DNA from: Escherichia phage vB_EcoM_ESCO9
DNA: 64,000 bases
Direction: 5' to 3' (one strand)
Sequence record: OM386654.1
Of this stretch, positions 2,457 to 16,500 are shown one piece after another; positions within the stretch are counted from its first letter, which is position 1; every line of letters begins with the position of its first letter. The notes beneath the pieces were generated by a model that was given only the letters and a program-made list of their open reading frames with translations, was not told the origin of the DNA and did not search any database. Position numbers and translations under genes: made by a program.

Positions 2457-2457
2457 A

Positions 2458-3961: not shown

Positions 3962-3980
3962 GAGAATTATTATCATTTGC
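3962..3980. promoter_or_regulatory. Fur-box-like site
   Basis: gagaattattatcatttgc versus Fur consensus GATAATGATAATCATTATC (about 14 of 19). Confidence 0.35.
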
Positions 3981-4156
3981 ATTATCATTCAATGACTTAT
4001 AAGACTTTTGATTATTTTCTGAGCAAGAAAGGCACTACTCACAACAAAACAGATAAATTCTAAGTAAATCAATGGCTTGGCATTTCTAAACATCTATATA
4101 CACCTTGCCAAATGAAATGATCCTGCGTGAAATAGTGCTACCCGTGGAAGATAGCT

Positions 4157-4175
4157 GATAATGATTATCATTTGC
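4157..4175. promoter_or_regulatory. Fur-box-like site (best match)
   Basis: gataatgattatcatttgc matches Fur consensus at 16 of 19 positions. Confidence 0.5.
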
Positions 4176-4512
4176 ATATTTTCTATACTATAAAACACCC
4201 TAAAAATCAAGATAATTCTAATTTATTGCGCTTTTAAGAAAGTAGGCTCAACAAATGATAGGCTATATGGGGGGCAATAGTATGAAAAACCATCTATTCA
4301 TATATAAATAATTTTGCGCAATAGTGTTAATATTTTTCTTGACAAGAAAGATTTCTTTGTGTTCACATAGCGCCCCCTGGAAGGTGGCGCATTATGATCA
4401 TCAGCATCATTATTCACGATGTTTATTATTGTATAGCTTATTATTTAGCTTATATTATAGCCAATGTTCTAAACATTAGCTAATAATAACGCACCGCAAC
4501 AATGTAAGGGAT

Positions 4513-4556
4513 ACAATATACAATTGTATATTGTTGCGCTTGCAGTTGTTGCAAGC
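4513..4556. repeat. two adjacent perfect palindromes
   Basis: acaatatacaattgtatattgt (22 bp perfect inverted repeat) followed by gcttgca-gttgt-tgcaagc. Confidence 0.6.
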
Positions 4557-4695
4557 TACATAAGCACAAATAATGACTATCGGTGATGGTTATTATGTGG
4601 GGTGTGTAGTTGCGTTATTATTAGCCGCCTATGTGTCCGGCATAGGCTGCTAATGATACGCTTGCGAATTATATTTCTTGTTATAGTTATTGTAT

Positions 4696-5050
4696 GGAAT
4701 GATTACCACATGAAATGGTTACTGTATGCAATGATTACTGTATGAAATGATTATCTAAGTAATAGATAGGAAGGTAAAGATTAGACCATAAATAGATAGG
4801 ATGTGAATTATTTAGTAATGTTACTAACAATTTAATAGTTACTTTGTGCAACAATTCGATAGATTATAATTGTAGTTTTAAGGGTTAGATAGATTATATT
4901 TAGCTTAGTAATGATTTATATTAGTTATTATTGTTTAATACAATGTTATCAATGAGATAGTAACAGTAAGTTATAAATAAAGGTGAGATAATTAGTTTTA
5001 ATTTAGTTAGATAACTTATTATTTTATAGGTTAGATGGTCTTAAGTTAAG
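4696..5050. repeat. AT-rich iteron-like short direct repeats
   Basis: Repeated words aatgattac, tgtatg(a/c)aat, aatagatagg, ggttagat(a/g)g. Confidence 0.45.
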
Positions 5051-5122
5051 AATGATTCTCATTATTGCATTATGCAATTTATTGCATAAATAATCAGCTA
5101 TAAATAAGAATGATTATCATTT
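5051..5122. promoter_or_regulatory. Fur-box-like sites plus palindrome
   Basis: gaatgattctcattattgc and agaatgattatcattt; palindrome ttgcattatgcaa between them. Confidence 0.4.
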
Positions 5123-5320
5123 AAGAGGAAAGACAAGAAAAAGGCTGTTTTTGCCAGGTAATTACATGAAGAAATTAAAAATAAGCGGTCTAAAACACGT
5201 TGTAAGCGCCTTATGATCTTCATGGTATGGTTGTTCATCTGCTCCTTGATTAGCTCGATACCGCGATCTATTCACTTTTTTCGGTGAACGTTTTTGATAG
5301 GTAAAAGCTATCATCTTTAT

Positions 5321-5353
5321 TTAGGTAAAAAGAAAGGGCGCAATAAGCGCCCT
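5321..5353 (-). terminator. intrinsic terminator after gene 5369..5752
   Basis: Stem agggcgc/gcgccct followed by T-run on the minus strand. Confidence 0.55.
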
Positions 5354-5368
5354 TGTTTGAAATGTTAT

Positions 5369-5752
5369 TTACTGATAAGCTGGATCGTTTGTTATATCAA
5401 TCCAATGAGATAAATTAATTTTATTTTTTGCTTTCATTTTCTCGATCAAACGTTCGGCTAATGTTTCTGAACGAATATAAACATGCTCGCTAAAATCTTG
5501 CCCCGTTTCTTCGTCGATCATTTCTCTATATTCAACCTTGCCGATAAACGCATGATTCAGCGCATAAGTTTTACCCGTGTACCAGTTATGTAAATGGATC
5601 TCGCATTTATAATCATCGCTATACCCTTCGGTTGTTCTAACTTCAACCAAGTCACCTTTAAACACTGATAAGCACCACATAGGATCACGATCTACAGCGC
5701 CGTTAAAATCTTTACCGTTTACAGTAGCCGCCAGGTTGATGATATTGCTCAT
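5369..5752 (-). CDS. hypothetical early protein
   Basis: 127 aa ORF; GAGG RBS. Confidence 0.6.
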   Translation of the reverse strand: MSNIINLAATVNGKDFNGAVDRDPMWCLSVFKGDLVEVRTTEGYSDDYKCEIHLHNWYTGKTYALNHAFIGKVEYREMIDEETGQDFSEHVYIRSETLAERLIEKMKAKNKINLSHWIDITNDPAYQ

Positions 5753-5827
5753 GGTGATTCCTCGTTTACCGTTTAAAATGATTTGCCCTACACGATAACT
5801 ATAAGTTAACAGAGGCTATAAAGCAAG

Positions 5828-6058
5828 TTATTTTTCAAAAAATTTTTCTACTGTGATATTCTTCCCAGTGGGATTAGCTACTTTCAAAATTTTATCATGT
5901 ACTGGACGCCCAAAAGAATAAGATCCGTATACAGTAAACCAATAATCACCGTCAGGCTGTACTATCACCGCTGCATAGGGTACGCCTTTTTCGTTATTGC
6001 TGACAGAATAGATCACATTGCCGTTAATAGCTTCAGCGCGTTTAATTTGTTCGATCAT
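5828..6058 (-). CDS. hypothetical early protein
   Basis: 76 aa ORF downstream of promoter-hairpin cassette. Confidence 0.55.
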   Translation of the reverse strand: MIEQIKRAEAINGNVIYSVSNNEKGVPYAAVIVQPDGDYWFTVYGSYSFGRPVHDKILKVANPTGKNITVEKFFEK

Positions 6059-6075
6059 GATATGATTCCTATATT

Positions 6076-6137
6076 GAGCGGGAAACCACTTCCCGCCTTA
6101 CGTGATACATCTTAGTATAAGGGCGATCCGGTGTCAA
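6076..6137 (-). promoter_or_regulatory. early promoter plus leader stem-loop cassette
   Basis: Minus strand: TTGACA, 17 nt, TAAGAT, then hairpin GGCGGGAAGTGGTTTCCCGC. Confidence 0.6.
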
Positions 6138-6481
6138 TAGGTAGGATTGTAAATATTTGATAGTTTATTCCTTTGATGTTTTGTTGTTTGATAGGTATTA
6201 GCTATTAATATATAGCGGGATCTTCCGGTGATTATCTTCCCCTGTCCCCAGGTGCCGCCCGTTCCATAATAATAATCAAAAGCAGGATAAAAGGCAAGAT
6301 AAAAAGCAAATTATTTCCTATGTGCTTTAAACGCTCTAGATAGCTTTATAACAGCTTTTTCATCCTGGTAAGGTGATTAATCATTCCTACCTTGTTTAAG
6401 CGGTTACAGTCGGTTTTAGATGGTTTTACGCCACCTTTACGCCTATTCTTTACGTGTCGCTTCCATTGTGAAAAAGAATAC

Positions 6482-6513
6482 AAAAAAGGGCGCTTAGTGC
6501 GCCCCTTTCTTTT
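6482..6513. terminator. bidirectional terminator-like hairpin
   Basis: aaaaaa-gggcgc-ttagt-gcgccc-ctttctttt. Confidence 0.5.
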
Positions 6514-6521
6514 ACCGTGTA

Positions 6522-6911
6522 TTAATATTCGTTATAATACATCGCTAACTTTTCATCAAAAGCCGATTGACGATCTGCATACTCCCAGAACATTTCCTGA
6601 TCCTGTTGTTCGTCATCATCCATCATATTAAATTGCGCAACCTCCTGGTAAGTGATCGCCATATTATAACGATAGGTGATCTCTTCTGCGATGTTTTCCG
6701 GTAAAGATGATTCTACACTGTCTAACAGCATATTTAACATCATTTCAGCCGCTTTTTCATCATTATCAAAGCAGTAAGCAGACCATGCCGCATGATGTTT
6801 ATTTTTCATCTTTGCAATCAAGCCATTGACTAAAAAAGGCGCTACGTTGTTAACGATACCCTGTAAAGATTGGAATTTTTCAACGTTAGAAACAGAAACC
6901 AGGTTGCGCAT
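6522..6911 (-). CDS. hypothetical early protein
   Basis: Start moved to internal ATG at 6911; track start at 6947 lies inside the leader hairpin. Confidence 0.5.
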   Translation of the reverse strand: MRNLVSVSNVEKFQSLQGIVNNVAPFLVNGLIAKMKNKHHAAWSAYCFDNDEKAAEMMLNMLLDSVESSLPENIAEEITYRYNMAITYQEVAQFNMMDDDEQQDQEMFWEYADRQSAFDEKLAMYYNEY

Positions 6912-6934
6912 AGTATTTACCTTTTTGATTACCT

Positions 6935-6993
6935 GGCGGGAAACCATTTCCCGCCTACGTGGTAAATAATAACATATTGGGGATCGGTGTCAA
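6935..6993 (-). promoter_or_regulatory. early promoter plus leader stem-loop cassette
   Basis: TTGACA, 16 nt, TATTAT, hairpin GGCGGGAAATGGTTTCCCGCC. Confidence 0.6.
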
Positions 6994-6999
6994 TACTTT

Positions 7000-7386
7000 T
7001 TATTCAATATAAATCAAATTATCTTCACCAATGTAAGCATGCACCGATGGCATTAATTTAGCTGCATTTGTTAGGCGGTTGGCGGTGTTAGTAGTGTATA
7101 TTTCAGGGCGATCCCAAAAGCCTACGCCGTGACCGTTACGGGTAAAATGTAAATCATTCCCGATCTGGTTTGCTGTAGCGCCGTCGCTCATTGCCTCAGA
7201 GATAGCAGCATCATTGGCATCACAATAAGCCGCTACGTCATGAATGATCCGCTGATGGGCTTGATCTGAAAAATCATAATCGTCTAAGTTATCAATAAAA
7301 TAGCCTTCATGATCCCTGGCCGATTCAGCAAAAATAAAGGCTTCTTTATAACCGTTGATGATTTCAATAATGATTTCAGTTTTCAT
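7000..7386 (-). CDS. hypothetical early protein
   Basis: 128 aa ORF. Confidence 0.6.
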   Translation of the reverse strand: MKTEIIIEIINGYKEAFIFAESARDHEGYFIDNLDDYDFSDQAHQRIIHDVAAYCDANDAAISEAMSDGATANQIGNDLHFTRNGHGVGFWDRPEIYTTNTANRLTNAAKLMPSVHAYIGEDNLIYIE

Positions 7387-7598
7387 GCTGTACGCTCGAC
7401 AATAATAATGGTTTGCGGTATCTCGTTTTCTACTACTAACAAGGCTTTTTTCTGCGTGATAGATATTTTAACACGTTGTAAAGTAGCGGTAAAATCTTTC
7501 ATTTCATTATGCGCGGATTTAGTGCAATGCCAGATCTCAGGTTTACCTATTTGCAAGCCGCGTAAAAATTCTGTTTTACCTGTCTTATTCGTGATCAT
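7383..7598 (-). CDS. hypothetical early protein
   Basis: ATG at 7598 with AAGGTG RBS; track start at 7616 is TTG. Confidence 0.45.
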   Translation of the reverse strand: MITNKTGKTEFLRGLQIGKPEIWHCTKSAHNEMKDFTATLQRVKISITQKKALLVVENEIPQTIIIVERTA

Positions 7599-7608
7599 TT
7601 GATTCACC

Positions 7609-7713
7609 TTATCCAATACCGTGGGAAGATAGGATCATGTTAGCCATAGTTGCAACCAATCCAACCGATAACGCCAGGCCAACTATTACAACCGTGAAAA
7701 TTTTCTCTAACAT
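7609..7713 (-). CDS. small single-TM peptide (34 aa), approximate
   Basis: MLEKIFTVVIVGLALSVGLVATMANMILSSHGIG; GAGGGTAG RBS. Confidence 0.3.
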   Translation of the reverse strand: MLEKIFTVVIVGLALSVGLVATMANMILSSHGIG

Positions 7714-7794
7714 GATTCTACCCTCATTAATGGGCGTTGCCTTATTGCCCCGCCCTATGTCGTACACTTTACCAGATAACCGCGTATTGTCAAA

Positions 7795-7989
7795 CTATTT
7801 TTTATAAGGGATCAGTAAACTTCTTGCTACCGCTTCACGTAAACCTTCCCTTTTTATCAGGTCTATTGTTGCAGGGTGGCAAGTAAAAGCCTTTGACCAT
7901 TTTTGATCACCTGGTTTACGGGCGAAAATGTAAACTTCTCCGTCGATTTCATCCCAACGAGTATTGCTTGTTAGTTTTTTAAGCGCCAT
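7795..7989 (-). CDS. hypothetical early protein
   Basis: Start moved to ATG at 7989; longer ORF runs into leader hairpin. Confidence 0.5.
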   Translation of the reverse strand: MALKKLTSNTRWDEIDGEVYIFARKPGDQKWSKAFTCHPATIDLIKREGLREAVARSLLIPYKK

Positions 7990-8010
7990 GCTGATTTCTC
8001 TTTTAGTTGT

Positions 8011-8068
8011 GAGCGGCACTATTGCCGCCCTACGAAATACATTCTACCCGATTTATAATTGTTGTCAA
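8011..8068 (-). promoter_or_regulatory. early promoter plus leader stem-loop cassette
   Basis: TTGACA, 16 nt, TAGAAT, hairpin GGGCGGCAATAGTGCCGCTC. Confidence 0.6.
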
Positions 8069-8069
8069 A

Positions 8070-8339
8070 CTATTTTTTCAAGCTCGACCAGTCAAAACAC
8101 GGGGCGATCTCGTTAAAACTTGTACCCTGTAAAGCACATAATTTTTTAGCAATAGCCGCCGTAACCTGGCGTTGTACGCGCGGATCTGCTACTGATTGGA
8201 GAAAATAGGCGGTTTTATATGTGATCATGCTTTCGCCTGTTTCCTTGTTAACGTGGTGCACGGTTTTAGCCTTATCATCTTTTACCAGGGTGTAACCGGA
8301 TTCAATGGCCTTGATTGCAACGTCCAAAGATATTTTCAT
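8070..8339 (-). CDS. hypothetical early protein
   Basis: 89 aa ORF; AAAGAGGTAAATC RBS. Confidence 0.6.
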   Translation of the reverse strand: MKISLDVAIKAIESGYTLVKDDKAKTVHHVNKETGESMITYKTAYFLQSVADPRVQRQVTAAIAKKLCALQGTSFNEIAPCFDWSSLKK

Positions 8340-8358
8340 GATTTACCTCTTTATTGAC

Positions 8359-8379
8359 GGCGGGGAATACTCCCCCGCC
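8359..8379 (-). promoter_or_regulatory. leader stem-loop with no own promoter
   Basis: ggcggggaatactcccccgcc about 19 nt upstream of start codon; upstream gene ends immediately before it. Confidence 0.5.
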
Positions 8380-8386
8380 TTATTAA

Positions 8387-8557
8387 TTACTCTTCATCGT
8401 CGCCGTTATAGTATTCAATGCCGTTTTCATCGGTTACAGTAATGTTAACGCCACCGATAGCAACACGATCACGGGCAAACGTCATGGCTTCATTTAAATC
8501 TTCAGACCAAAAAATATTGTGACCTTTGCGCGATACATAAAACATAGTTGGGATCAT
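8387..8557 (-). CDS. small hypothetical protein (56 aa), approximate
   Basis: ORF below track cutoff; AGAAGAGAAA RBS; sits downstream of cassette 8579..8640. Confidence 0.35.
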   Translation of the reverse strand: MIPTMFYVSRKGHNIFWSEDLNEAMTFARDRVAIGGVNITVTDENGIEYYNGDDEE

Positions 8558-8578
8558 GATTTGTTTCTCTTCTGTTGT

Positions 8579-8640
8579 GAGCGGGAAACCATTTCCCGCC
8601 CTATGTGATAAACTTTACTACGTTGTTTGCCTAGTGTCAA
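8579..8640 (-). promoter_or_regulatory. early promoter plus leader stem-loop cassette
   Basis: TTGACA, 17 nt, TAAAGT, hairpin GGGCGGGAAATGGTTTCCCGCTC. Confidence 0.6.
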
Positions 8641-8641
8641 A

Positions 8642-8926
8642 TTATTTTTTAATGTTTTGCCCTACAAAATTGATCACTTCCTTAAGCTGTTTCTCAGTCA
8701 TGATCGTGCCTGGTAATTCTTCTTTGATTTCTTCCGGTAGATAGATATTACCGCGCCAGGTTAATAAACAACCGTTTTGATCTTCGCAGATAGAATAAGA
8801 GAAGATCCACTCATTATCATTCTCAAGCTCCCAAAAGCACAAAAAATCTTCTTTCCCTAAATTTTCAACGGTTAAACATAATCCGCGACGTGCTGCATAG
8901 TTGGAAAGTGCTTTTGTGATCTTCAT
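8642..8926 (-). CDS. hypothetical early protein
   Basis: 94 aa ORF. Confidence 0.6.
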   Translation of the reverse strand: MKITKALSNYAARRGLCLTVENLGKEDFLCFWELENDNEWIFSYSICEDQNGCLLTWRGNIYLPEEIKEELPGTIMTEKQLKEVINFVGQNIKK

Positions 8927-8945
8927 AGCTTATCTCTTCTGTTAA

Positions 8946-9008
8946 GGCGGGGAAACCATTTCCCCGCTCTATGAGATACAATATACTATCTGTTAGGTGT
9001 GCTGTCAA
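8946..9008 (-). promoter_or_regulatory. early promoter plus leader stem-loop cassette
   Basis: TTGACA, 17 nt, TATATT, hairpin GCGGGGAAATGGTTTCCCCGCC. Confidence 0.6.
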
Positions 9009-9332
9009 TCAATAATCTTTAAGATTTTCTACATTTACAAAAGTGCGTTTATTTTCTAAGTTTTCGCCGTACCATTGCCCCATGTTGATTTCTGCGGTGC
9101 GCAACCAGGACATGCCGCGTTGTATCTTTTTACTTGCAATCTCGATCCGGCTTTTGCATAGTGCTTTCGCTTGCAATGTAAAAACACTATTGCCCTGTAA
9201 TGCTTCCAGGTCATCATGTGCAAGGCGATACTCTTTAAAGCCTGATTCTATCATTTCAATAGCATCAAGTAAACGCGCGCGATGATAGAAAAAATCAGAG
9301 TTATCCAAATAAACACCGATCACAGATTTCAT
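9009..9332 (-). CDS. hypothetical early protein
   Basis: Start moved to ATG at 9332 (MKSVIGVY...) with AAAAGGGTAAAATT RBS. Confidence 0.5.
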   Translation of the reverse strand: MKSVIGVYLDNSDFFYHRARLLDAIEMIESGFKEYRLAHDDLEALQGNSVFTLQAKALCKSRIEIASKKIQRGMSWLRTAEINMGQWYGENLENKRTFVNVENLKDY

Positions 9333-9432
9333 AATTTTACCCTTTTGTTTGCGGCCTTTGCCGTTTTCAAGATATAGTTTAAAGCATAACAAAAAATTGT
9401 CAAGCCTTTAAAGCGTACAACTATAAAACCTA

Positions 9433-9552
9433 TTAAAACACAATGTATAACAACATGGCTATAGTAGCAATACAACATAAAGCCATGCTTGTTTTCCTTC
9501 CTTCCTCGTATGCTGGATTTATTACGCTATATTGTACGGGAATAATTTTCAT
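9433..9552 (-). CDS. small hydrophobic peptide (39 aa), approximate
   Basis: MKIIPVQYSVINPAYEEGRKTSMALCCIATIAMLLYIVF; AAGGAAACAGC RBS. Confidence 0.3.
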   Translation of the reverse strand: MKIIPVQYSVINPAYEEGRKTSMALCCIATIAMLLYIVF

Positions 9553-9561
9553 GCTGTTTCC

Positions 9562-9657
9562 TTAATGTCTTAAAACGTGGTTTACAATAGAAACAAGCAT
9601 ACAGAAGAAAAAAGATCCTGTCAATAAGATACCGAAAAATAAATGTAAATAGGGCAT
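9562..9657 (-). CDS. small hydrophobic peptide (31 aa), approximate
   Basis: MPYLHLFFGILLTGSFFFCMLVSIVNHVLRH; AAGGAG RBS. Confidence 0.3.
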   Translation of the reverse strand: MPYLHLFFGILLTGSFFFCMLVSIVNHVLRH

Positions 9658-9661
9658 GGTT

Positions 9662-9964
9662 TTACTCCTTAAAAAAATCATTGACAATTAAACTGATAAC
9701 GCCCAGCACCAGATCACCAGGTAGTGCCGCGCTTTCGTTGTTGCTTGTTTGCACTTCCTCACTAGTACCAGCACGATAGATTGCATGGTAAGCAATAGTA
9801 TAATAACCTTTCGTTATTTCTTTAAGATTAATGATTAGCACGTTATTTGTTTCATCTTGAAACAATTTAGCGGTGATAGTATTGTTTTCTTTTACACTAT
9901 CGACTTTTATTGATGGATCATTTACACCAGAAAAAAGAAAAAACGTTTTAGCTATGCCGTTCAT
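9662..9964 (-). CDS. hypothetical early protein
   Basis: 100 aa ORF; AAGGAG RBS. Confidence 0.55.
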   Translation of the reverse strand: MNGIAKTFFLFSGVNDPSIKVDSVKENNTITAKLFQDETNNVLIINLKEITKGYYTIAYHAIYRAGTSEEVQTSNNESAALPGDLVLGVISLIVNDFFKE

Positions 9965-10011
9965 GTAGTTCTCCTTTGTTGTGTGTATCTTATAACGTGC
10001 TTTCTATGTTG

Positions 10012-10413
10012 TCAATCTTTTATCTCGGTGCATTTTGCTAGGGTATACGTTGCAAGTGCTGACACTAGTTTTTCATTGCTACGATCTGCGGCTGTACTGT
10101 GTACTTTTTGAATACTTTTTAACCACGGCGTAAAATTTTGAGTAGTCAGCACACTGGTAATAATTTCACATGGCACATCTTCATTTAAGCCGTTAACAAT
10201 AGATTTATCTATTTTTGCCGTTAGTTGTGTAACAGCACCATAAGCGATCATGTGTGAATCCTCCATGATTTCATCGGGGATCGCATTATTAATAAGCATG
10301 ACGTTTTCCATTGCATCAACGGCGCTTAATTCTGCTACTGTGGAGGATATCGCCGCGCTAGATGTTCCAACCATGCCAAAAGAGATTAAACCAGCGATCA
10401 ATAATTTTTTCAT
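10012..10413 (-). CDS. secreted protein with N-terminal signal peptide
   Basis: MKKLLIAGLISFGMVGTSSAA signal-peptide-like N-terminus; GAGG RBS. Confidence 0.55.
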   Translation of the reverse strand: MKKLLIAGLISFGMVGTSSAAISSTVAELSAVDAMENVMLINNAIPDEIMEDSHMIAYGAVTQLTAKIDKSIVNGLNEDVPCEIITSVLTTQNFTPWLKSIQKVHSTAADRSNEKLVSALATYTLAKCTEIKD

Positions 10414-10421
10414 TTCTTGCC

Positions 10422-10604
10422 TCATATATGTTTTATTGAGATTATATTGTCACTATATACAACGTTTTTCAACGTGTCAATAAAAATCTTATTGCCTTCA
10501 ATCCCCAGGATCACGCCGCTAGTTATGAAGCCATATTGATCACGATATCGGGCGCATAACCTTTGCCCCTGGGCTAGTGCCTTGCTTATTTCGTCTAATT
10601 TCAT
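10422..10604 (-). CDS. hypothetical early protein
   Basis: 60 aa ORF; AGGAG RBS. Confidence 0.5.
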   Translation of the reverse strand: MKLDEISKALAQGQRLCARYRDQYGFITSGVILGIEGNKIFIDTLKNVVYSDNIISIKHI

Positions 10605-10696
10605 TTTTAAAGCTCCTGTAAAGCCGTCTAACGTTGATTTATAGGCTTATCCTGGCGTTACCATTGCCTATGGGTAACAAGCCTCTATATAAGCTA

Positions 10697-10724
10697 AAAG
10701 GGCGCTTATTGCGCCCTTTTTTGT
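10697..10724. terminator. bidirectional terminator-like hairpin
   Basis: aaagggcgc-ttatt-gcgccc-ttttttg. Confidence 0.5.
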
Positions 10725-10876
10725 TATTCGTTCCAGTATCTTTTTGTGCTGCGATCTCTCTTTGTTTTGTTCCGCTTGTCGCCTTTTTTGGTGATCTCTT
10801 CGTTCCAATCTTTACGCGCCTTGCTGCGGTTGAATTTTTCGATCTGCTGTGATGCGTTCATGTTTCTTCCTCTTAA

Positions 10877-11236
10877 TTACGCCACGTTATGCTGTTTTGC
10901 CAGGATTACGATCATGCTTGCAATATATAACCAATAATTTTCCCGCTCACGGGTAACGGTTGTTTCTTTGCTTGTTTCTTTTATGTACTTCCATTCAATT
11001 AATAAATGATCAATCTCGTTATAATCAAAGGCGATGTTAATGTCTGACGGTAAACCTTGTAACCATGAGGCTATCGCCTTGATCACGTTATAATTGTAAC
11101 GTTTTTGATTATCGGGATACCAGTATTCAGAGTTAAAACGGCGCATCAGTTCGGTGATCTTTTCTTTTTCGGTTGTAGTACCATCAAAAGAAATAGCCGA
11201 CACAATGTAAGTTTTAATTGCTTTTACTGATTTCAT
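10877..11236 (-). CDS. hypothetical early protein
   Basis: 119 aa ORF downstream of cassette. Confidence 0.6.
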   Translation of the reverse strand: MKSVKAIKTYIVSAISFDGTTTEKEKITELMRRFNSEYWYPDNQKRYNYNVIKAIASWLQGLPSDINIAFDYNEIDHLLIEWKYIKETSKETTVTRERENYWLYIASMIVILAKQHNVA

Positions 11237-11256
11237 GATCTTATCTCTTTATTGAT

Positions 11257-11315
11257 GGCGGGAAACCATTTCCCGCCGTTGTTGTTACTTTACTTATAAA
11301 TGATGCTACTGTCAA
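11257..11315 (-). promoter_or_regulatory. early promoter plus leader stem-loop cassette
   Basis: TTGACA, 17 nt, TAAAGT, hairpin GGCGGGAAATGGTTTCCCGCC. Confidence 0.6.
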
Positions 11316-11322
11316 GCGGATT

Positions 11323-11493
11323 TTATTTATTTTTTAGCGTTAACGTTCCCAGCTTATCAGCGTGACGCAGACCAGGGAAGATCCATTTACCTGATTCATC
11401 TTTTACCGGGGCTTTAAGCGTAGCGCCCAGGTTGGCGGCGTTAACTTTACGTGCAACGTTGCGAGCGGCTTCACGGGTAGCGAAAGTGATCAT
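11323..11493 (-). CDS. hypothetical early protein (56 aa)
   Basis: Start moved to ATG at 11493 with AAGAGGAAA RBS. Confidence 0.45.
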   Translation of the reverse strand: MITFATREAARNVARKVNAANLGATLKAPVKDESGKWIFPGLRHADKLGTLTLKNK

Positions 11494-11516
11494 GATGTTT
11501 CCTCTTCTCTTTGTTA

Positions 11517-11577
11517 GGCGGTGGGCTATTCCACCGCCTTGATGAATACAGTTTACTTTATTTTTGCAGTATTGCAA
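11517..11577 (-). promoter_or_regulatory. leader stem-loop with variant -35
   Basis: Hairpin ggcggtgggctattccaccgcc (compensatory stem changes); TTGCAA in place of TTGACA. Confidence 0.45.
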
Positions 11578-11583
11578 GCGGTT

Positions 11584-11799
11584 TTATGAAATAAATGTCA
11601 AAGTAAAATCATAATCTTTTGACAGTTTATATTGCACCTTGTTACCGTATATGTCACCTTTACGTAAAGATCCACGGATACCGATAACATCCTTCACGTC
11701 TTTTAAATTTTTCACGCCTGTAATGTCTTTGTTGAAATACTCGTCATCTGAAAATAAAACTTGACTTGCATTTTTTAACAGTGTGCGGATATTAGCCAT
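11584..11799 (-). CDS. hypothetical early protein (71 aa)
   Basis: Start moved to ATG at 11799. Confidence 0.45.
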   Translation of the reverse strand: MANIRTLLKNASQVLFSDDEYFNKDITGVKNLKDVKDVIGIRGSLRKGDIYGNKVQYKLSKDYDFTLTFIS

Positions 11800-11820
11800 C
11801 TTGATAATCTCTCTCACTAG

Positions 11821-11878
11821 GAGCGGCACTATTGCCGCCCTATGCATTACATTTTACTGATTTTAGTTATCTTGTCAA
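11821..11878 (-). promoter_or_regulatory. early promoter plus leader stem-loop cassette
   Basis: TTGACA, 16 nt, TAAAAT, hairpin GGGCGGCAATAGTGCCGCTC. Confidence 0.6.
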
Positions 11879-11886
11879 TATTATTT

Positions 11887-12114
11887 TTAGTTTAATTGAT
11901 CCAGGCACAACAAGCGATCAACATTTAGATCGGTTAGGCTAATCGTTGGCACCTGGTAGGATTCGATGTACTCAACGCTCGACCATTGCCCAAAGTTAGC
12001 GACCGCCCAGCTATTCAAGGAGGAGTGAAGATCATCCCCTTTCTTCTCTGTGATAACTGCTACTACCTGGGAGCTTCCAACCGTACCGGATACGCGAACA
12101 ATAACGATAGCCAT
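11887..12114 (-). CDS. hypothetical early protein
   Basis: 75 aa ORF; AAAGAAAGG RBS. Confidence 0.5.
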   Translation of the reverse strand: MAIVIVRVSGTVGSSQVVAVITEKKGDDLHSSLNSWAVANFGQWSSVEYIESYQVPTISLTDLNVDRLLCLDQLN

Positions 12115-12136
12115 AATGATAACCTTTCTTTGATTT

Positions 12137-12196
12137 GGCGGGAAACCATTTCCCGCCCTATGTGATAAACTATACCAGAATTTTAAACAGTGTCAA
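12137..12196 (-). promoter_or_regulatory. early promoter plus leader stem-loop cassette
   Basis: TTGACA, 16 nt, TATAGT, hairpin GGGCGGGAAATGGTTTCCCGCC. Confidence 0.6.
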
Positions 12197-12291
12197 ATTA
12201 TTTTCTATTTCTTCCGTAATAGCCTAACTTATGATCTAAGCTAAAACGTTTTGTGAGATAGGTCGAACGATGTTTCATTTTTATACCTCCT

Positions 12292-12531
12292 TTACATTCC
12301 AACCATAGCGGCACGGATCGCGGTTTTACTGAACTTGAATCCGTCTGGCGTTTTATCTTGATCCATACTTTCAAGAAATAACATCATATCCCGCGCTGCG
12401 TCATTCTTATTGGTGTTAGCTGCGATAAATTCACGCGCAAGATTATAAAAACCTTCATCGTTGTTGATCCAAAGGCTTACATTCCAATGAGTTTTGTTTT
12501 TGTGACCTAAGAACATTTTAGATTTAGCCAT
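12292..12531 (-). CDS. hypothetical early protein
   Basis: 79 aa ORF; AAAGAGATTAACATC RBS. Confidence 0.55.
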   Translation of the reverse strand: MAKSKMFLGHKNKTHWNVSLWINNDEGFYNLAREFIAANTNKNDAARDMMLFLESMDQDKTPDGFKFSKTAIRAAMVGM

Positions 12532-12555
12532 GATGTTAATCTCTTTTTCAGTGAG

Positions 12556-12614
12556 GCGGGAACTATTCCCGCTCTCGATATAAGTATTATATGCTTTTTA
12601 TTCGTGCTGTCAAT
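12556..12614 (-). promoter_or_regulatory. early promoter plus leader stem-loop cassette
   Basis: TTGACA, 16 nt, TATAAT (perfect -10), hairpin gcgggaa-cta-ttcccgc. Confidence 0.65.
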
Positions 12615-12619
12615 GCTTT

Positions 12620-12985
12620 TTATAAATCTTTTTTACGTTTAACATCGCTTGCATGACTGTATACAGCGATCCCATTATCACGGCAAAAACGGGAAAGGTA
12701 TGCATAATTTGAAAACTCTTTACCTTCCATATTAATAACCTTGCTAAATTCTTCCAGGGCGACGGTATCAAAATGATCCCCATAACCATATTGAAACGGA
12801 ACGTTAACGACTTCAATCAGTTTACCGCCGATCTCAACGTCAACCATCAAAGAGAAATAAGTATTACCATAAGACTTTTGAAACCAGCGACGGGCGCTAA
12901 TATGTACCGCTTCAATGCTGGATAGTTCAATTTTAGCAGTGTTAGCCAGGGTAGCATAAGCAGAAACATTGATATTTTTAGCCAT
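12620..12985 (-). CDS. hypothetical early protein
   Basis: 121 aa ORF; AAAAGAGATTAAAG RBS. Confidence 0.6.
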   Translation of the reverse strand: MAKNINVSAYATLANTAKIELSSIEAVHISARRWFQKSYGNTYFSLMVDVEIGGKLIEVVNVPFQYGYGDHFDTVALEEFSKVINMEGKEFSNYAYLSRFCRDNGIAVYSHASDVKRKKDL

Positions 12986-13080
12986 AGTCTTTAATCTCTT
13001 TTGATTAGTTAGGAGTATTCCCGATAAAAGTTATTATGCTTGTACTATCGTTCGTTGTCAATAGCACAAGACTAAAACTT

Positions 13081-13260
13081 TTAACGATAATCATCATATG
13101 CTTTATTGACCTGGCGAATATAGCATTCAAAAGCTAGATCAATAGATTTATATTCACGGATATAATCACCATAGGAAACCACATACATTTCTATAGCTTC
13201 CTCATATGCCAGGATGATAGAATCTAAACCTACGATCTCAGTCTTTGCAATAATAGCCAT
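13081..13260 (-). CDS. small hypothetical protein (59 aa), approximate
   Basis: ORF below track cutoff; AAGGA RBS. Confidence 0.3.
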   Translation of the reverse strand: MAIIAKTEIVGLDSIILAYEEAIEMYVVSYGDYIREYKSIDLAFECYIRQVNKAYDDYR

Positions 13261-13408
13261 GCTTTTATTCCTTAGTCATGTTTCAATCTATATAAGCATT
13301 ATAGCTTACTGATTTCAGGTGTCAAGTGATTTTTTTTATTTCACCTTATGGGGCGTTGCCCCGCTTTATGTGGTACATATTACGGGGCTTGTTCGCATAT
13401 GTCAAGCC

Positions 13409-13963
13409 TTACACAAGACAATTTTCATAATTTTTTAGGGCTTGTCTTTTTTCCTCTTCCGTCGGCATGTATGGCTGGATCTCTTCCTCTTCCAGGGTAG
13501 GCATGATTTCTTCCTCTTCCTCCTGGTCGTCCTGGTCTTCCTCTTGCGCTACTGCAACAAGTTTATTGATCTTCTCCTGGGCTTTAATCAATTTTGCATC
13601 TAGCACCATTTTAGCGGTGTTGTATACCGTCCATGCCATGCGTTTTTCTTCGTATGCTTTATCTAGTGCGGCTAATTTAGCGGGATATTCTTCTAACACC
13701 TTAAAAGCCGGATCAATGCTGTATAAGGGATTATTTTTAGCGTCATCGCTTGGATCTGCGGCGCTTGCAATGTCAGCGTTACCATTTGCCAGCCAACCAG
13801 GGCGAACAGATCGCGCCTTTGTGTTGCCGTTGCTCTTTGCCGCTCGATTTCCTATCTGCTCCCCGCTATACCCTACCATGTGATCGATCATGTCATCTGG
13901 TATTATGCGCGGATCATTAGCGTCATGCTTTACCCAGGACTGGATCACATACTCACGCCCCAT
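13409..13963 (-). CDS. hypothetical early protein with strongly acidic C-terminal region
   Basis: 184 aa ORF; EEDQDDQEEEEE tract. Confidence 0.6.
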   Translation of the reverse strand: MGREYVIQSWVKHDANDPRIIPDDMIDHMVGYSGEQIGNRAAKSNGNTKARSVRPGWLANGNADIASAADPSDDAKNNPLYSIDPAFKVLEEYPAKLAALDKAYEEKRMAWTVYNTAKMVLDAKLIKAQEKINKLVAVAQEEDQDDQEEEEEIMPTLEEEEIQPYMPTEEEKRQALKNYENCLV

Positions 13964-13964
13964 G

Positions 13965-14225
13965 CTAATTTGCCTCTTCTGTTAGTAGTTTACATACCTT
14001 AAACATGCTTGCCGCGTCTTTTGACGGTAGCCAGCCTATGCGATACACTCCCGGATCTGGATTAGTTATATCAGTCAGTTGCGCGTTGCGATGATTAAAA
14101 ATAGTGTAACCGCCGCCAGCACGGGGATAAACATTATCTTTAAACCTGATAGCGTATCTCGCCAGGTTGAACGTTGCAGCATGTTCAAAAGCGATCACAT
14201 TATCAAAAACTTTTAGAAAAAACAA
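13965..14225 (-). CDS. hypothetical early protein
   Basis: 86 aa ORF. Confidence 0.55.
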   Translation of the reverse strand: MFFLKVFDNVIAFEHAATFNLARYAIRFKDNVYPRAGGGYTIFNHRNAQLTDITNPDPGVYRIGWLPSKDAASMFKVCKLLTEEAN

Positions 14226-14227
14226 GA

Positions 14228-14374
14228 TTATCCTCCCCAGCGTTTAAAGCCCGTTGCACGGTTGTTTTTTAGCTCTCGTTTTAGTCTCTTGCAACGGTTT
14301 ACAAGTGCAAACCGTGCCGGAGTCGTAACAGTAGCGCCGTTTTTGGTGTGAATACTCATTACATATTGTTTCAT
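14228..14374 (-). CDS. small basic protein (48 aa), approximate
   Basis: ORF below track cutoff; K/R-rich; AGGA RBS. Confidence 0.3.
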   Translation of the reverse strand: MKQYVMSIHTKNGATVTTPARFALVNRCKRLKRELKNNRATGFKRWGG

Positions 14375-14393
14375 AAAGTTTTATCCTATGTAA

Positions 14394-14446
14394 GCGGGAA
14401 CTATTCCCGCTTTAAGATAGCTTATCAGGTTTTAGTGCAATGTCAA
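14394..14446 (-). promoter_or_regulatory. early promoter plus leader stem-loop cassette
   Basis: TTGACA, 16 nt, TAAGCT, hairpin GCGGGAATAGTTCCCGC. Confidence 0.55.
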
Positions 14447-14452
14447 CCGTTT

Positions 14453-14815
14453 TTATTCGTAAATTTTACCGCTTTCTACCCATACCATAACACGGCGCAT
14501 GTTATCCCATGCATCTTGTCGCAGATTTAAGGCATGCAATTCTTCGGTTGTGCTCATACCTGGTACGGGCTTGCTATATGTTACAAAGAGATCGCCAGCA
14601 TATTCATAAGCCAGGGTAAGATCACATTGAATCATCTTTTTAAGCATAGCATTAAGCATCATATTAGCGGCATGTTGATCACGTTTTAGCGGTAGCGTTG
14701 CGATCTGTGAGCGATAGCTTTCGATCCGTGCATCCACTGCATCACGTGGAAGATTTTTCACGTCGTCGCGGAAAGATACCAGGTTTAACATGATAGTATT
14801 GATTTGCTTGCTCAT
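14453..14815 (-). CDS. hypothetical early protein
   Basis: 120 aa ORF. Confidence 0.6.
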   Translation of the reverse strand: MSKQINTIMLNLVSFRDDVKNLPRDAVDARIESYRSQIATLPLKRDQHAANMMLNAMLKKMIQCDLTLAYEYAGDLFVTYSKPVPGMSTTEELHALNLRQDAWDNMRRVMVWVESGKIYE

Positions 14816-14840
14816 TGTGTTACCCTTTCTTTGATGGCCT

Positions 14841-14901
14841 GGCGGGAAACCATTTCCCCGCCTTATGTGGTATATATTACCAAATTATTTTTCAGTGTCA
14901 A
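14841..14901 (-). promoter_or_regulatory. early promoter plus leader stem-loop cassette
   Basis: TTGACA, 16 nt, TAATAT, hairpin GGCGGGGAAATGGTTTCCCGCC. Confidence 0.6.
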
Positions 14902-14904
14902 GCC

Positions 14905-15177
14905 TTAAAGCAAAAACGCTACATCTTGCGCTTTTAGTGTAGTATCAACCATTTTCGGGCTTTTATAATCAACAAAGCGCGCGGTTTTTTCAATAACGAA
15001 GCCGAGATAATCTTGTTTATTGAAATTACATTCTTTTTTAAATGTTTCCCGTGCCACGGTGATCGCTGCATCCAGGGATAAACGCCCATCAATATTGATG
15101 TTAGCGAAAGATCCGCCACCGCGCATAGGTTTACCAGTGATGCCCATTACGATCATTGATGCGCTATATGATGCCAT
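14905..15177 (-). CDS. hypothetical early protein
   Basis: 90 aa ORF. Confidence 0.55.
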   Translation of the reverse strand: MASYSASMIVMGITGKPMRGGGSFANINIDGRLSLDAAITVARETFKKECNFNKQDYLGFVIEKTARFVDYKSPKMVDTTLKAQDVAFLL

Positions 15178-15199
15178 GATTATTTCTCTCTTCTGTTAT

Positions 15200-15257
15200 G
15201 AGCGGCACTATTGCCGCCCTATGTGATACATCTTATCAGATTAAAAAACGTTGTCAA
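15200..15257 (-). promoter_or_regulatory. early promoter plus leader stem-loop cassette
   Basis: TTGACA, 16 nt, TAAGAT, hairpin GGGCGGCAATAGTGCCGCT. Confidence 0.6.
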
Positions 15258-15632
15258 GAATATTTTTAAAAAATAATAACCGCAACTACAATCCAAAATG
15301 GAACGGCAAGAATGATAGCGTTAATCGTTCCAACCGTCAAGCTGTTTTCTTTCTTGATCATCGTTATCAACCTTTTATAAGTAATGTTATTGTGACGGTG
15401 GATTATGGAGATCCTCACCTTTGCCCGTCCTACATTGCGCCCTCCTTTTGTTTATTGTCGTTGTGCCTCGCCCCCTCGACAAGATGAATAATACGCTACC
15501 AGGTGAGGAACGTCAACCCCTTTTTTAATCTTTTTTTCATTTCTTTTTTTTTTTGCTTGCTATCTATAAAGGAAAGGGCTATTATCTTTCTACCGCGCCA
15601 ACCAGGGCGCACATCAAAGAAAGGGCGATACC

Positions 15633-15899
15633 ATGACAAATACTACTCTACACCTCATGCACTCATTAGGCTGGCAAGGCGGCACGGTGCACCAGGTAGC
15701 AAGCGCAACGGGCTTAAAGGTTGAAACCGTTCTCAACCTGGGCGATCATAAGGTGGAAGAAATAGATCATTTTGATCCGTTCGCCAATGGTTATCTATGG
15801 GCTTGCAGTGGCGGCGGGGAAAGCAAGATACCACCAGGGGCGCGGGGCGATATGTATTTTTGGTTAGGTGTCCTATCCTGGCAAGAAAACAAAAAGTAA
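15633..15899 (+). CDS. hypothetical protein (uncertain)
   Basis: 88 aa plus-strand ORF in a locally GC-rich patch; weak AAAGGG RBS. Confidence 0.3.
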   Translation: MTNTTLHLMHSLGWQGGTVHQVASATGLKVETVLNLGDHKVEEIDHFDPFANGYLWACSGGGESKIPPGARGDMYFWLGVLSWQENKK

Positions 15900-15901
15900 T
15901 A

Positions 15902-15930
15902 TTGACAAGCCCAGGGATCGGGCTTATACT
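15902..15930 (+). promoter_or_regulatory. near-consensus sigma70-type promoter with no obvious downstream ORF
   Basis: TTGACA, 17 nt, TATACT. Confidence 0.5.
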
Positions 15931-16160
15931 GTTTTACATACAGAAGAGGAAACGCCACCCCCACGGCGTAAAGGCGGGGCTAACATACCAGGGGGCACTG
16001 GTTGGAAGGTTGATCGCCGGTAGCTCGTCTAAAATAAATTTGTAAAGAAATGTAAAGATAAAAATAATCGCTTGCTTTTGTTGTTGGTTATGCTATTCTT
16101 ATTGTATGGCGAGGGGACACGGGAGCGCGAGACAAACACCGCCCCTGCGCGTTATTCTCT

Positions 16161-16275
16161 AAATGAGAAAATTCTCATTTGCTAATGATTCTCATTCTCT
16201 TACTGAGAATGATTATCACTTACATAGTTAAATGATAATGATTCTCATTTACAAACGAAAATGATTCTCATTAAC
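16161..16275. promoter_or_regulatory. cluster of about five Fur-box-like sites
   Basis: aaatgagaaaattctcattt palindrome, gagaatgattatcacttac, aaatgataatgattctcattt, aaaatgattctcattaac. Confidence 0.5.
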
Positions 16276-16289
16276 ACACCTATAAAAAC

Positions 16290-16500
16290 ACGAAATTGAA
16301 CTTTTCATTTTTGATTTTTCTACGGAAAAAGGCAAAAAAACTTTAAATAAACTGGGGAATTTTTAAAAAATTGAAGTTTTCATTTTCAAAATCTGGATAG
16401 AAATACATACAAAAACTTTAAATAATTTTGACCAAACTTGAACTTTTCATTTTCAAAATTTGTACCCAAAAATCTGTAAAAACTTTAAATAATTTTGTAC
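16290..16500. repeat. three tandem ~67 bp direct repeats
   Basis: Each unit has TTGAAcTTTTCATTTTcaaaat ... aaaaactttaaataatttt. Confidence 0.6.

Follow-up and report, generated by a model that had tools for sequence, protein, structure and literature searches.

Motifs termed promoter-early stem-loops (PeSL), which combine a sigma70 promoter with a GC-rich stem-loop, lie between the ORFans of hyperplastic regions in T4-like phages (RB49/phi1, PST and nt-1), and have been linked to modular shuffling and mini-circles (Arbiol, Comeau and Krisch 2010, PMC2839356; Comeau et al. 2014, PMC4122927). Here, we describe an array of small genes (the block, positions 5369-15177) in a 64,000-nucleotide stretch (the window) of Escherichia phage vB_EcoM_ESCO9 (OM386654.1), for which the PeSL regions are the closest known analogue. 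The window belongs to a Justusliebigvirus (phi92-like, Stephanstirmvirinae) coliphage, and the block is 98.9% identical to that of phage Paula and is the counterpart of phi92 gp226-gp248. The gene map was transferred from the Paula annotation, and Paula was compared over 138.5 kb of its 146.5 kb. We consider it probable that the array is an accessory-gene compartment driven by sigma70 promoters, hyperplastic and built from individual cassettes rather than imported as a single island, with a composition kept up by recombination with a shared gene pool and by host repair.

Cowe and Sharp in 1991 and Kunisawa in 1992 reportedly described a dichotomy between early and late codon usage in T4. A dichotomy of this kind has been documented in phages by Mioduser, Goz and Tuller 2017 (PMC5683454). 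The block resembles these cases in that its presumed early genes differ in synonymous codons, and in that codons read by phage tRNAs are commoner outside the early class. It differs in that the contrast is mainly an oligonucleotide signature (CpG, GpC, GATC, CCWGG and GGAG), which extends to codon junctions and non-coding DNA, is common to the arrays of unrelated phages, and is accompanied by gene exchange. In rV5, of a sister subfamily (Kropinski et al. 2013, PMC3606486), a large non-coding region is likewise followed, at the same syntenic locus, by a leftward series of small genes whose promoters are of sigma70 type. The parts of that paper that concern promoters, terminators, stem-loops and hairpins show a non-coding box, list promoters genome-wide, raise the possibility that promoter classes are not switched, and describe no hairpin cassette, cassette shuffling or compositional contrast.

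By analogy, the array may also be compared with integron arrays, which consist of small, individually mobile open reading frames (ORFs), each linked to an imperfect inverted repeat or hairpin, with a content that varies between close relatives. In contrast to integrons, there is no integrase or attI here, each cassette has its own promoter where integron cassettes are promoterless, and exchange looks like homologous recombination between promoter and hairpin repeats. The array further resembles the T5 pre-early and T7 class I regions as a cluster of small, mostly non-essential genes with strong sigma70 promoters for the host RNA polymerase at the start of infection, and contains a T7 gp1.1 homologue, but gives no evidence that it is terminally located, has terminal repeats or enters the cell in steps.

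The promoter-hairpin cassette of the array

The array lies between two large non-coding regions (Table 1), with densely packed minus-strand genes on both sides, beyond which come a long arm for replication and nucleotide metabolism on the plus strand, and the genes of the tail fibres. Coding density is 72% in the block and 95% elsewhere, and the array genes have a median length of 89 aa and a median intergenic gap of 87.5 nt. A scan of the window for tRNAs returned none.

On the coding strand, we identified 21 sites between 6109 and 15516 that match the sigma70 consensus at 10 or more of its 12 positions; TTGACA is perfect in 20 of the sites, and a regular-expression search retrieved 23 promoters in the block; promoter-like sites were not enriched in a 20-kb control region (64 found, 64.5 expected). 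An earlier, sequence-only reading of this DNA had proposed a promoter for nearly every gene, and this largely holds, with a promoter directly before about 17 of the 25 genes and the others sharing one in units of two to three genes. The same reading proposed a ribosome-binding site (RBS) other than AGGAG, which the counts bear out: GGAG occurs upstream of 3 of the 25 block genes and 58 of 80 others (p=8e-8), AAGAG or AGAGA upstream of 12 of 25 and 10 of 80, respectively, and the mean duplex energy with the anti-Shine-Dalgarno sequence is -5.0 in the block and -8.6 kcal/mol in the others.

The repeated cassette, which about 15 genes carry, reads in gene orientation as TTGACA-N16/17-TAnnnT, a stretch of some 10 nt that is often TATCACATAG, and then, at about +5, a GC hairpin for which GGCGGGAAATGGTTTCCCGCC is typical; an A-rich leader of the form CAACAGAAGAGAAA..., with a weak AAGAGA-type RBS, precedes the ATG. 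Thirteen hairpins are linked to a promoter (dG -9.8 to -15), and two to three more have a variant promoter or none. The stem base GCGG...CCGC is invariant, and four compensated fifth pairs (G-C, C-G, T-A and A-T) were read from the sequences directly, the MAFFT alignment having left the inner stems structurally unaligned; this compensated variation of the inner pairs indicates that the structure itself is conserved. The predicted 5' untranslated regions have a 5'-proximal hairpin of -14 to -17 kcal/mol (z -2.4 to -5.0) and an unpaired RBS leader of about 20 nt. Each hairpin starts 6-13 nt after the -10 box, which, from predicted start sites, would leave about 0-6 unpaired nt at the 5' end; for the cassette design in general, we take a start some 3-6 nt from the predicted 5' end. 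Elsewhere in the 138.5 kb of Paula, the GC-hairpin cassette was found only as one related copy at a TerC-like gene. An Rfam scan of positions 3000-17500 (E<=1) gave a sub-threshold match to STnc320 only, and thus no known RNA family.

In our preferred explanation, unmodified host RNA polymerase would fire all the cassette promoters straight after DNA entry, the hairpin would shield short mRNAs from 5'-end-dependent decay and/or damp read-through from upstream cassettes, and the open A-rich leader would let host ribosomes initiate without a strong Shine-Dalgarno sequence. The sequence-only reading suggested that the block forms an expression class of its own, tuned to host sigma70. The sequence is consistent with this: the promoters are near-consensus and spaced as the cassettes are, the leader and the RBS are of a distinct type, and coding density is low; the early timing is something we infer.

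Alternatively, the hairpins may act mainly at the level of DNA or of termination, as PeSL-like read-through attenuators or as attC-like sites for recombination proteins, rather than as stabilisers of mRNA 5' ends. PeSL stem-loops matched rrnB T1 in reducing lacZ expression, and crossovers have been mapped in or near them (PMC2839356); in our block, there are only three canonical terminators for about 20 promoters (Table 1), the annotators of Paula labelled several leader hairpins as terminators, and the invariant stem base suggests sequence-specific recognition. However, the leader hairpins have no U-tract on the coding strand and their tails are A-rich, unlike intrinsic terminators, and each lies downstream of its own promoter, where an efficient terminator would also silence its own gene. 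In addition, of the junctions mapped among relatives, no fewer lie in the -35/-10 region than in the hairpin. We regard such a role as possible, but on the doubtful side.

Of the structural and behavioural features of PeSL, those that can be examined in silico were found in the array: the promoter consensus, an adjacent stable GC stem-loop, a hyperplastic setting among small genes of unknown function, and junctions within the motifs. As in PeSL regions, a strong sigma70-type promoter and a GC-rich stem-loop are repeated between small ORFans in a plastic region, the motifs contain the breakpoints of indels and replacements that distinguish close relatives, and some gene families are common with T4-like phages (gp30.8 in the block, and several genes annotated as RB49-like in the array of rV5). 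The phage, however, belongs to the Stephanstirmvirinae and is not a T4-like myovirus, and the array is accordingly a PeSL variant rather than a strict member: PeSL occur in Straboviridae, whereas the arrays considered here occur in Stephanstirmvirinae, in Vequintavirinae and in a jumbo phage. The hairpin follows the -10 box and falls in the predicted 5' untranslated region, an arrangement that is one of five PeSL subclasses (PMC2839356) but not the usual one in RB49, where the hairpin is mostly between -35 and -10; the RBS is of AAGAGA type here, and GGAG in RB49. The array is moreover one contiguous locus between two non-coding regions, and a compositional island, whereas HPR3 of RB49 is indistinguishable from its backbone (delta* 15, CpG 1.11 vs 1.12), which rules out that PeSL arrays are always compositional islands. 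In the T4-like systems, PeSL are further characterised by termination or attenuation of transcription at the stem-loop and by encapsidated mini-circles.

Composition of the array and of related arrays in other lineages

The sequence-only reading held the block to be compositionally distinct, with a GC content of 45-48%. The distinctness is strongly supported, and measures of GC, codon and tetranucleotide usage all differ from those of the rest, but the GC content was overstated. The block has 39.6% GC and the rest of the window 37.4% (mean per-gene GC 39.8% vs 36.8% for other small genes, p=0.001), with values of 44-49% only in genes 11323-11493 (48.5%), 11887-12114 (47.4%) and 13409-13963 (46.5%) and in the bin 15001-16000 (44.5%). 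GC at third codon positions (GC3) is 38.8% in the block and 29.5% elsewhere (p=4e-8), while GC1 is lower in the block, and synonymous codon usage is heterogeneous between the two (chi2=411, df 41, p ~1e-62). Strand-symmetrised tetranucleotide usage in the block correlates with the rest at r=0.17, compared to about 0.8 for other 9.8-kb segments away from it, and the Karlin delta* between block and backbone is 170, compared to 44+-10 (maximum 76) among backbone pieces.

The dominant component of this contrast is CpG. The observed/expected ratio per gene averages 1.30 in the block and 0.68 outside (p=6.5e-13), and exceeds 1 in 23 of the 25 block genes, with no listed backbone gene above 1.06. The contrast is present at all three codon phases (1.14 vs 0.59 at the 3-1 junction), and GpC, like CpG, is not depleted in the array. 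In the 138.5 kb of Paula, the CpG ratio is 0.41-0.91 everywhere but at this locus (1.08-1.24), the sole region that is not CpG-depleted, and the island extends from one flanking non-coding region to the other. Observed/expected ratios in block and backbone, respectively, are 2.6 and 1.3 for GATC, 2.7 and 0.46 for GCGC, 1.9 and 0.22 for CGCG, 4.5 and 1.5 for CCWGG, 0.18 and 0.90 for CTWGG/CCWAG, and 0.50 and 1.27 for GGAG. The 41 CCWGG sites of the block are spread over 22 genes, 35 of them in coding sequence.

A relaxed avoidance of restriction sites in the array was ruled out for 6-bp palindromes, of which 33 of 64 kinds are absent from the block against 11.4 expected. In the Paula backbone (125 kb, equivalent to window positions 1-3552 and 16712-64000), 25 of the 64 kinds are absent, including AAGCTT and AGTACT (each 0 against about 42 expected), CTCGAG, GAGCTC, CCATGG and CAGCTG, a pattern that reads as strong avoidance of restriction-type sites. 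GCGC is entirely absent from one jumbo phage locus (L013).

The short genes, low coding density and the GCGG and CCGC words added by hairpins could together suggest an artefact of short, over-called or fast-evolving ORFs, with no real compartment. This is refuted, and we give it a negligible probability: the GC of 54 other small genes in the window is like that of the backbone, the CpG contrast persists in coding sequence alone (1.28 vs 0.68), and 24 of the 25 array proteins match PHROG families (all of unknown function; the protein of gene 8070-8339 has no match), several of them being 58-97% conserved in other lineages. The same contrast, moreover, occurs in five lineages.

The four lineages beyond our own in which we identified this contrast are Phapecoctavirus (AV125), rV5, an Avunavirus (24-2-1) and a 348-kb jumbo phage, and 78-93% nucleotide identity was found between parts of the block and the DNA of rV5-like phages, of an Avunavirus and of jumbo phages of 348-381 kb. 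Promoter-hairpin leaders like those of the block were seen in rV5 and in the jumbo phage. In rV5, the syntenic locus comprises a non-coding box followed by a small-gene array, with leaders of the form GGCGGGAA...TTCCCGCC and a CpG ratio of 0.91-1.13 compared to 0.5-0.8. The jumbo phage SHEFM2K has an 18-kb small-gene array with TTGACA-N16-TATAAT, a GGGGAGAA...TTCTCCCC hairpin and an AAAGAGA leader, in which at least nine PHROG families are common with the block, in a different order, and the CpG ratio is 0.93-1.22 compared to 0.44-0.79 in adjoining DNA. The arrays of rV5 and Avunavirus are slightly GC-poorer than their own backbones, which rules out a higher GC content as a general rule for such arrays. 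The delta* is 54-90 between arrays and 134-170 between an array and its own backbone, the arrays thus being far more alike among themselves; between the phi92-like and rV5 backbones, it is 42.

Exchange of cassettes and maintenance of the signature

We compared the block across seven relatives (KKE7M, outra, AV125, JLBYU50, PHB05, PaulScherrer and ALITA). Cassette footprints make up 14.7% of the sequence but contain 15 of the 38 unique alignment breakpoints (p=1.8e-4), and many of the other breakpoints lie no more than 10-20 nt from a footprint. Deletion junctions have overlaps of 5-17 nt, and where an extra gene has been inserted the cassette is duplicated over 26-71 nt; these homologies point to recombination between repeated cassettes. 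In outra, gene 7795-7989 has been removed by a crossover within aaaaatagtttgacaa (stop codon and -35 box), which is common to two adjacent cassettes, and the extra gene of ALITA has a leader hairpin of the jumbo-phage type. JLBYU50 has no counterpart of positions 5577-9329 (3.75 kb of the block), indicating that this part is dispensable in nature. The aligned genomes thereby show cassette-driven deletion, insertion and replacement of single genes, for which the repeated cassettes supply portable homology.

The locus was found, in synteny, in all the Justusliebigvirus and Phapecoctavirus relatives examined and in the Vequintavirinae, and its presence in two subfamilies indicates that it is old, while its content varies among the seven relatives. 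Array proteins of the window have 68-97% identity to those of rV5 and 58-81% to those of the jumbo phage, whereas backbone proteins have 25-53% identity to rV5 (24.6% for the DNA polymerase), indicating that genes moved between lineages long after the backbones diverged. The gene content of the array is fluid though the locus is old, and gene families circulate among the equivalent arrays of Phapecoctavirus, rV5-like phages, Avunavirus and a jumbo coliphage.

We examined whether the signature is at equilibrium using polarised singleton differences among six Justusliebigvirus genomes, from which clustered differences were filtered out. In the array, 127 changes from A or T to G or C (W>S) and 129 in the opposite direction (S>W) yielded an equilibrium GC of 0.396 (now 0.400) and an equilibrium GC3 of 0.419 (now 0.402); in the backbone, the counts were 158 and 156, and the equilibrium values 0.373 (now 0.370) and 0.302 (now 0.293), respectively. 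Gains and losses of CpG (27 and 37 in the array) were roughly balanced in both compartments. The balance of W>S and S>W changes indicates that each compartment is at its own equilibrium within the same genomes, and amelioration, a drift to the resident composition, was thus ruled out. Per site, the array differs between genomes 1.7 times as often as the backbone in isolated differences and 2.6 times as often in clustered ones.

These results bear on the proposal of the sequence-only reading that the block is a horizontally acquired module. Acquisition fits single cassettes, given their identities across lineages, the T4 and T7 gene families, and the indels at cassettes, but not the module as a whole. 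A single, fairly recent island from a GC-richer donor with normal CpG (host, prophage or another phage), not yet ameliorated, would account for the sharp compositional edges at the two non-coding regions, the composition atypical of the resident genome, the CpG ratio resembling those of E. coli and RB49, and the HNH endonuclease gene adjoining the right boundary. Against it, the locus is syntenic rather than sporadically present, its content is a mosaic in which the relatives vary from gene to gene, there is no excess of S>W changes or CpG losses, and 6-bp palindromes are avoided as in the backbone. Megablast of the block against 5,426 complete E. coli genomes found no match, which ruled out a host or prophage origin. 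The single island is thus largely refuted, and we consider it very improbable.

It could also be that the array is inherited vertically and its composition set by selection alone, the early genes relying on unmodified host machinery before phage tRNAs and takeover factors are available. This would be in line with the consensus sigma70 promoters and special leader and RBS, the depletion of GGAG as in E. coli, the composition at equilibrium, and the differences in codon usage between early and late genes that about half of tested phages are known to have (PMC5683454). The shift in codons is correlated with average usage in E. coli (r=0.77), and the A-ending codons for the phage's own tRNAs (GGA, ACA, CCA and CAA) are rarer in the block than in the backbone. 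However, the shift tracks average rather than highly expressed genes (r=0.49), and the codon adaptation index, calculated against E. coli ribosomal and elongation factor genes, is not significantly higher in the block (0.416 vs 0.388, p=0.11), so that translational optimisation was rejected as the main driver. The CpG contrast extends to codon junctions and into flanking non-coding DNA, the pattern of CCWGG and CTWGG is of a repair type rather than translational, the identities of array and backbone proteins show that inheritance has not been purely vertical, and other small, sigma70-independent genes of the same arm lack the signature. As the whole explanation, adaptation as an expression class is in our opinion unlikely; as a contributor, selection for expression by unmodified host machinery is a real alternative, and is not exclusive with repair.

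In the explanation that we prefer, the signature is most likely maintained by frequent recombination with the shared pool together with host mismatch repair (of very-short-patch type, and GC-biased) acting on heteroduplexes, although this is the least certain part of the account. Very-short-patch repair in E. coli is a known source of CCWGG excess and CTWGG depletion, and its substrate is T:G mismatches, of which heteroduplexes formed in recombination contain many. All the arrays examined have an excess of CCWGG (observed/expected 1.8-4.5, compared to 1.1-1.8 in backbones and 1.78 in E. coli), and CTWGG/CCWAG is at 0.18-0.21 in the arrays of Paula, the jumbo phage and AV125, compared to 0.58-0.90 in their own backbones and 0.18 in E. 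coli. By eye, the genes of the block that are shared with Phapecoctavirus are no more CpG-depleted than those that are not.

A number of observations weigh against this account, and the case for biased repair is circumstantial. The arrays of rV5 and Avunavirus have CTWGG/CCWAG at 0.58-0.69, no lower than their backbones, and very-short-patch repair accounts for CCWGG and CTWGG but not for CpG, GCGC or GATC. Every pool carrier examined except RB49 is CpG-depleted, hence the pool alone does not explain the high CpG, and the excess of CpG, GCGC and GATC is fully explained neither by biased repair nor by selection for early expression. The arrays are only modestly closer to E. coli in delta* (89-102) than the phi92-like and rV5 backbones (115-121; the value for the jumbo backbone is 207), and the singleton test does not separate point mutations from short gene-conversion tracts. 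The avoidance of 6-bp palindromes indicates that the array has long been adapted to the same hosts, and the excess of breakpoints at cassettes may partly reflect survivorship, because viable indels must lie between genes. Lastly, we found no data in the searchable literature on transcription start sites, timing or mRNA half-lives for phi92- or rV5-like phages, and a literature search on Stephanstirmvirinae and Vequintavirinae turned up no study of promoters or transcriptomes. Early timing, as well as where the hairpin lies in the transcript and what it does there, is accordingly inferred.

More speculatively, virulent coliphages of unrelated lineages (phi92-like, rV5-like, Avunavirus and 121Q-like jumbo phages) might share one mobile early-gene cassette system, a counterpart of integron arrays with promoter-hairpin exchange sites, a separate evolutionary compartment with an oligonucleotide equilibrium (normal CpG, GATC and CCWGG in excess, CTWGG and GGAG depleted) set by host mismatch and very-short-patch repair of frequent heteroduplexes, hence recombination-driven biased gene conversion, and Fur-box-like elements at its borders or for its control. 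We put this forward as a long shot rather than as an expectation.

Gene content, flanking regions and implications

Only three array proteins have Pfam matches, to T4 gp30.8 (5369-5752), T7 gp1.1 (10724-10861) and DUF7249 (12292-12531), and the gp30.8 family is found in about 1,050 phage records, mostly T4-like. Five array proteins have no sequence relative in PDB. A part in host takeover, as raised by the sequence-only reading, is thus hypothetical for these genes. We additionally identified small ORFs of 26-48 aa that follow cassette-type leaders (Table 1), several of which are annotated in PaulScherrer, KKE7M and outra. Four of the six are hydrophobic and resemble membrane peptides (among those at 7609-7713, 9433-9552, 12198-12278 and 15266-15361, three are hydrophobic), and ORF 12198-12278 has a strong AGGAGG RBS and lies inside an 87-nt segment missing from most relatives.

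The sequence-only reading had placed the block between two non-coding regions with Fur boxes, and at the sequence level this is borne out. The exact palindrome AATGAnnnTCATT, the 13-bp core of the Fur consensus, occurs six times in the window (0.18 expected), always in the two flanking regions, and nowhere else in the Paula sequence examined. Compared to the 19-bp Fur consensus GATAATGATAATCATTATC, one site matches at 17 of 19 positions and three at 16 of 19, and no strong promoter was found over the palindromes. In other phage loci, AATGAnnnTCATT occurs once at the edge of the rV5 array (L014 27630), and elsewhere at L006 1301, 2183 and 13613 and L008 12832. These palindromes could equally serve host Fur or, as operators, a protein of the phage. 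The flanking regions also contain tandem repeats, at 4686-4753, 16204-16276 and 16367-16497, whose iteron-like look suggests a possible replication origin or packaging site.

At 15902-16045 (+), in the right region, a leader of cassette type, AGAAGAGGAAAC, comes after a consensus promoter (TTGACA-N17-TATACT); no ATG, GTG or TTG is present at the usual distance from this leader, and a GC-rich stretch lies beyond it. This stretch (15936-16045) was rejected as a non-coding RNA, as it folds no better than shuffled sequences (z=-0.39). The HNH-type endonuclease adjoining this region has 83% identity to that of Paula and is shorter.

The window differs from Paula in segments 3091-3625 and 17264-18253. 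Gene 3091-3552 stands in place of Paula genes 0065-0068, and its product goes by the name of putative DNA-binding protein in PaulScherrer. The tail component gene 58505-60391 (-) encodes 628 aa in the window and 939 aa in Paula, about 930 nt of the C-terminal part being absent from the window, which is probably variation of a receptor-binding module. The UvrD/Rep-family helicase gene (L018 6294-9068 in PaulScherrer and L019 6756-9530 in ALITA, equivalent to window 27076-28812) has an intein of about 1 kb in some relatives that is absent from the window and Paula. About 19 GenBank records of "Campylobacter phage" (e.g. A145 and A110a) have about 95% identity to the window phage over the block, and from their sequences look like mislabelled or contaminant Justusliebigvirus genomes.

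Table 1. Positions of the array, its cassettes and other features in the window (strand given where assigned)
Feature	Position	Strand	Details
Small-gene array	5369..15177	-	25 annotated genes, 45-184 aa, and at least 4 unannotated small ORFs
Compositional island	4500..16500 (about)	.	Sliding 1-kb CpG observed/expected ~1.0-1.35, compared to 0.5-0.8 outside
Left non-coding region	3553..5368	.	AT-rich, 32% GC
Fur-box-like palindromes, left region	4160-4172, 5051-5063, 5109-5121		
16/32-bp repeats (x4/x2), left region	4686-4753		
Right non-coding region	15178..16711	.	Divergent promoters
Fur-box-like palindromes, right region	16184-16196, 16237-16249, 16260-16272		
67-bp tandem repeat (x2), right region	16367-16497		Partial third copy upstream
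Divergent 88-aa gene	15633..15899	+	49% GC; leader with hairpin GCGCCAACCAGGGCGC then ACATCAAAGAAAGGG, same style as array
Intrinsic terminator ending the array	5334..5354	-	Also in Paula annotation
Intrinsic terminator	6482-6510	-	
Intrinsic terminator	10696-10720	bidirectional	
Cassette, gene 5828-6058	6077..6137	-	TTGACA-N17-TAAGAT, hairpin GGCGGGAAGTGGTTTCCCGCT
Cassette, gene 6522-6911	6935..6993	-	TTGACA-N16-TATTAT, hairpin GGCGGGAAATGGTTTCCCGCC
Cassette, small ORF 7609-7713 and gene 7383-7598	7732..7793	-	
Cassette, gene 7795-7989	8011..8068	-	TTGACA-N16-TAGAAT, hairpin GGGCGGCAATAGTGCCGCTC; -35 box is the crossover of the outra gene deletion
Leader hairpin upstream of gene 8070-8339	8359..8379	-	GGCGGGGGAGTATTCCCCGCC, no promoter of its own
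Cassette, gene 8387-8557	8579..8640	-	
Cassette, gene 8642-8926	8947..9008	-	
Cassette, gene 10877-11236	11257..11315	-	
Variant cassette, gene 11323-11493	11516..11577	-	TTGCAA-N16-TAAACT, hairpin AGGCGGTGGAATAGCCCACCGCCT, inner stem compensated
Cassette, gene 11584-11799	11818..11878	-	
Cassette, gene 11887-12114	12137..12196	-	
Cassette, gene 12292-12531	12556..12613	-	TTGACA-N16-TATAAT; site of extra-gene insertion in ALITA, PHB05, JLBYU50 and outra
Cassette, ORF 14228-14374 and genes 13965-14225, 13409-13963	14392..14446	-	
Cassette, gene 14453-14815	14841..14901	-	
Cassette, gene 14905-15177	15200..15257	-	
Consensus sigma70-type promoter, gene 9009-9332	9376..9403	-	No GC hairpin
Other hairpin-less promoters	9596-9624, 9987-10015, 10452-10480, 13033-13061, 13298-13325, 13377-13405, 15312-15340, 15488-15516	-	
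ORF unannotated in Paula	14228..14374	-	48 aa; annotated in KKE7M, outra and PaulScherrer
Further small ORFs	7609-7713, 9433-9552, 12198-12278, 15266-15361	-	Absent from Paula annotation
Further small ORF	4394-4483	+	Absent from Paula annotation
Distant cassette of like design	37699-37778	+	TTGACT promoter, hairpin GCGGAGGATTGTCCTCCGC, AAAGAGGAG leader; precedes TerC-like membrane protein gene 37776-38753

If our explanation is true, the accessory "dark matter" genes of therapeutically used coliphages would form a bounded, exchangeable compartment with its own expression logic rather than random filler. A CpG observed/expected ratio of at least 1 within a CpG-depleted backbone, together with TTGACA-hairpin-AAGAGA leaders, would provide a rule for spotting such arrays and their boundaries in new genomes. 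The gene families that cross lineages make up a short list of prime candidates for functions in host interaction or anti-defence, and the cassettes may serve in engineering as dispensable insertion sites with strong predicted early expression signals. Specialists may find a cross-lineage compositional compartment held at equilibrium surprising, and it is directly testable. The array would thus offer a natural system in which to ask whether two compositions can be kept up side by side within a small genome by recombination and repair by the host, as opposed to biased mutation or selection on translation.

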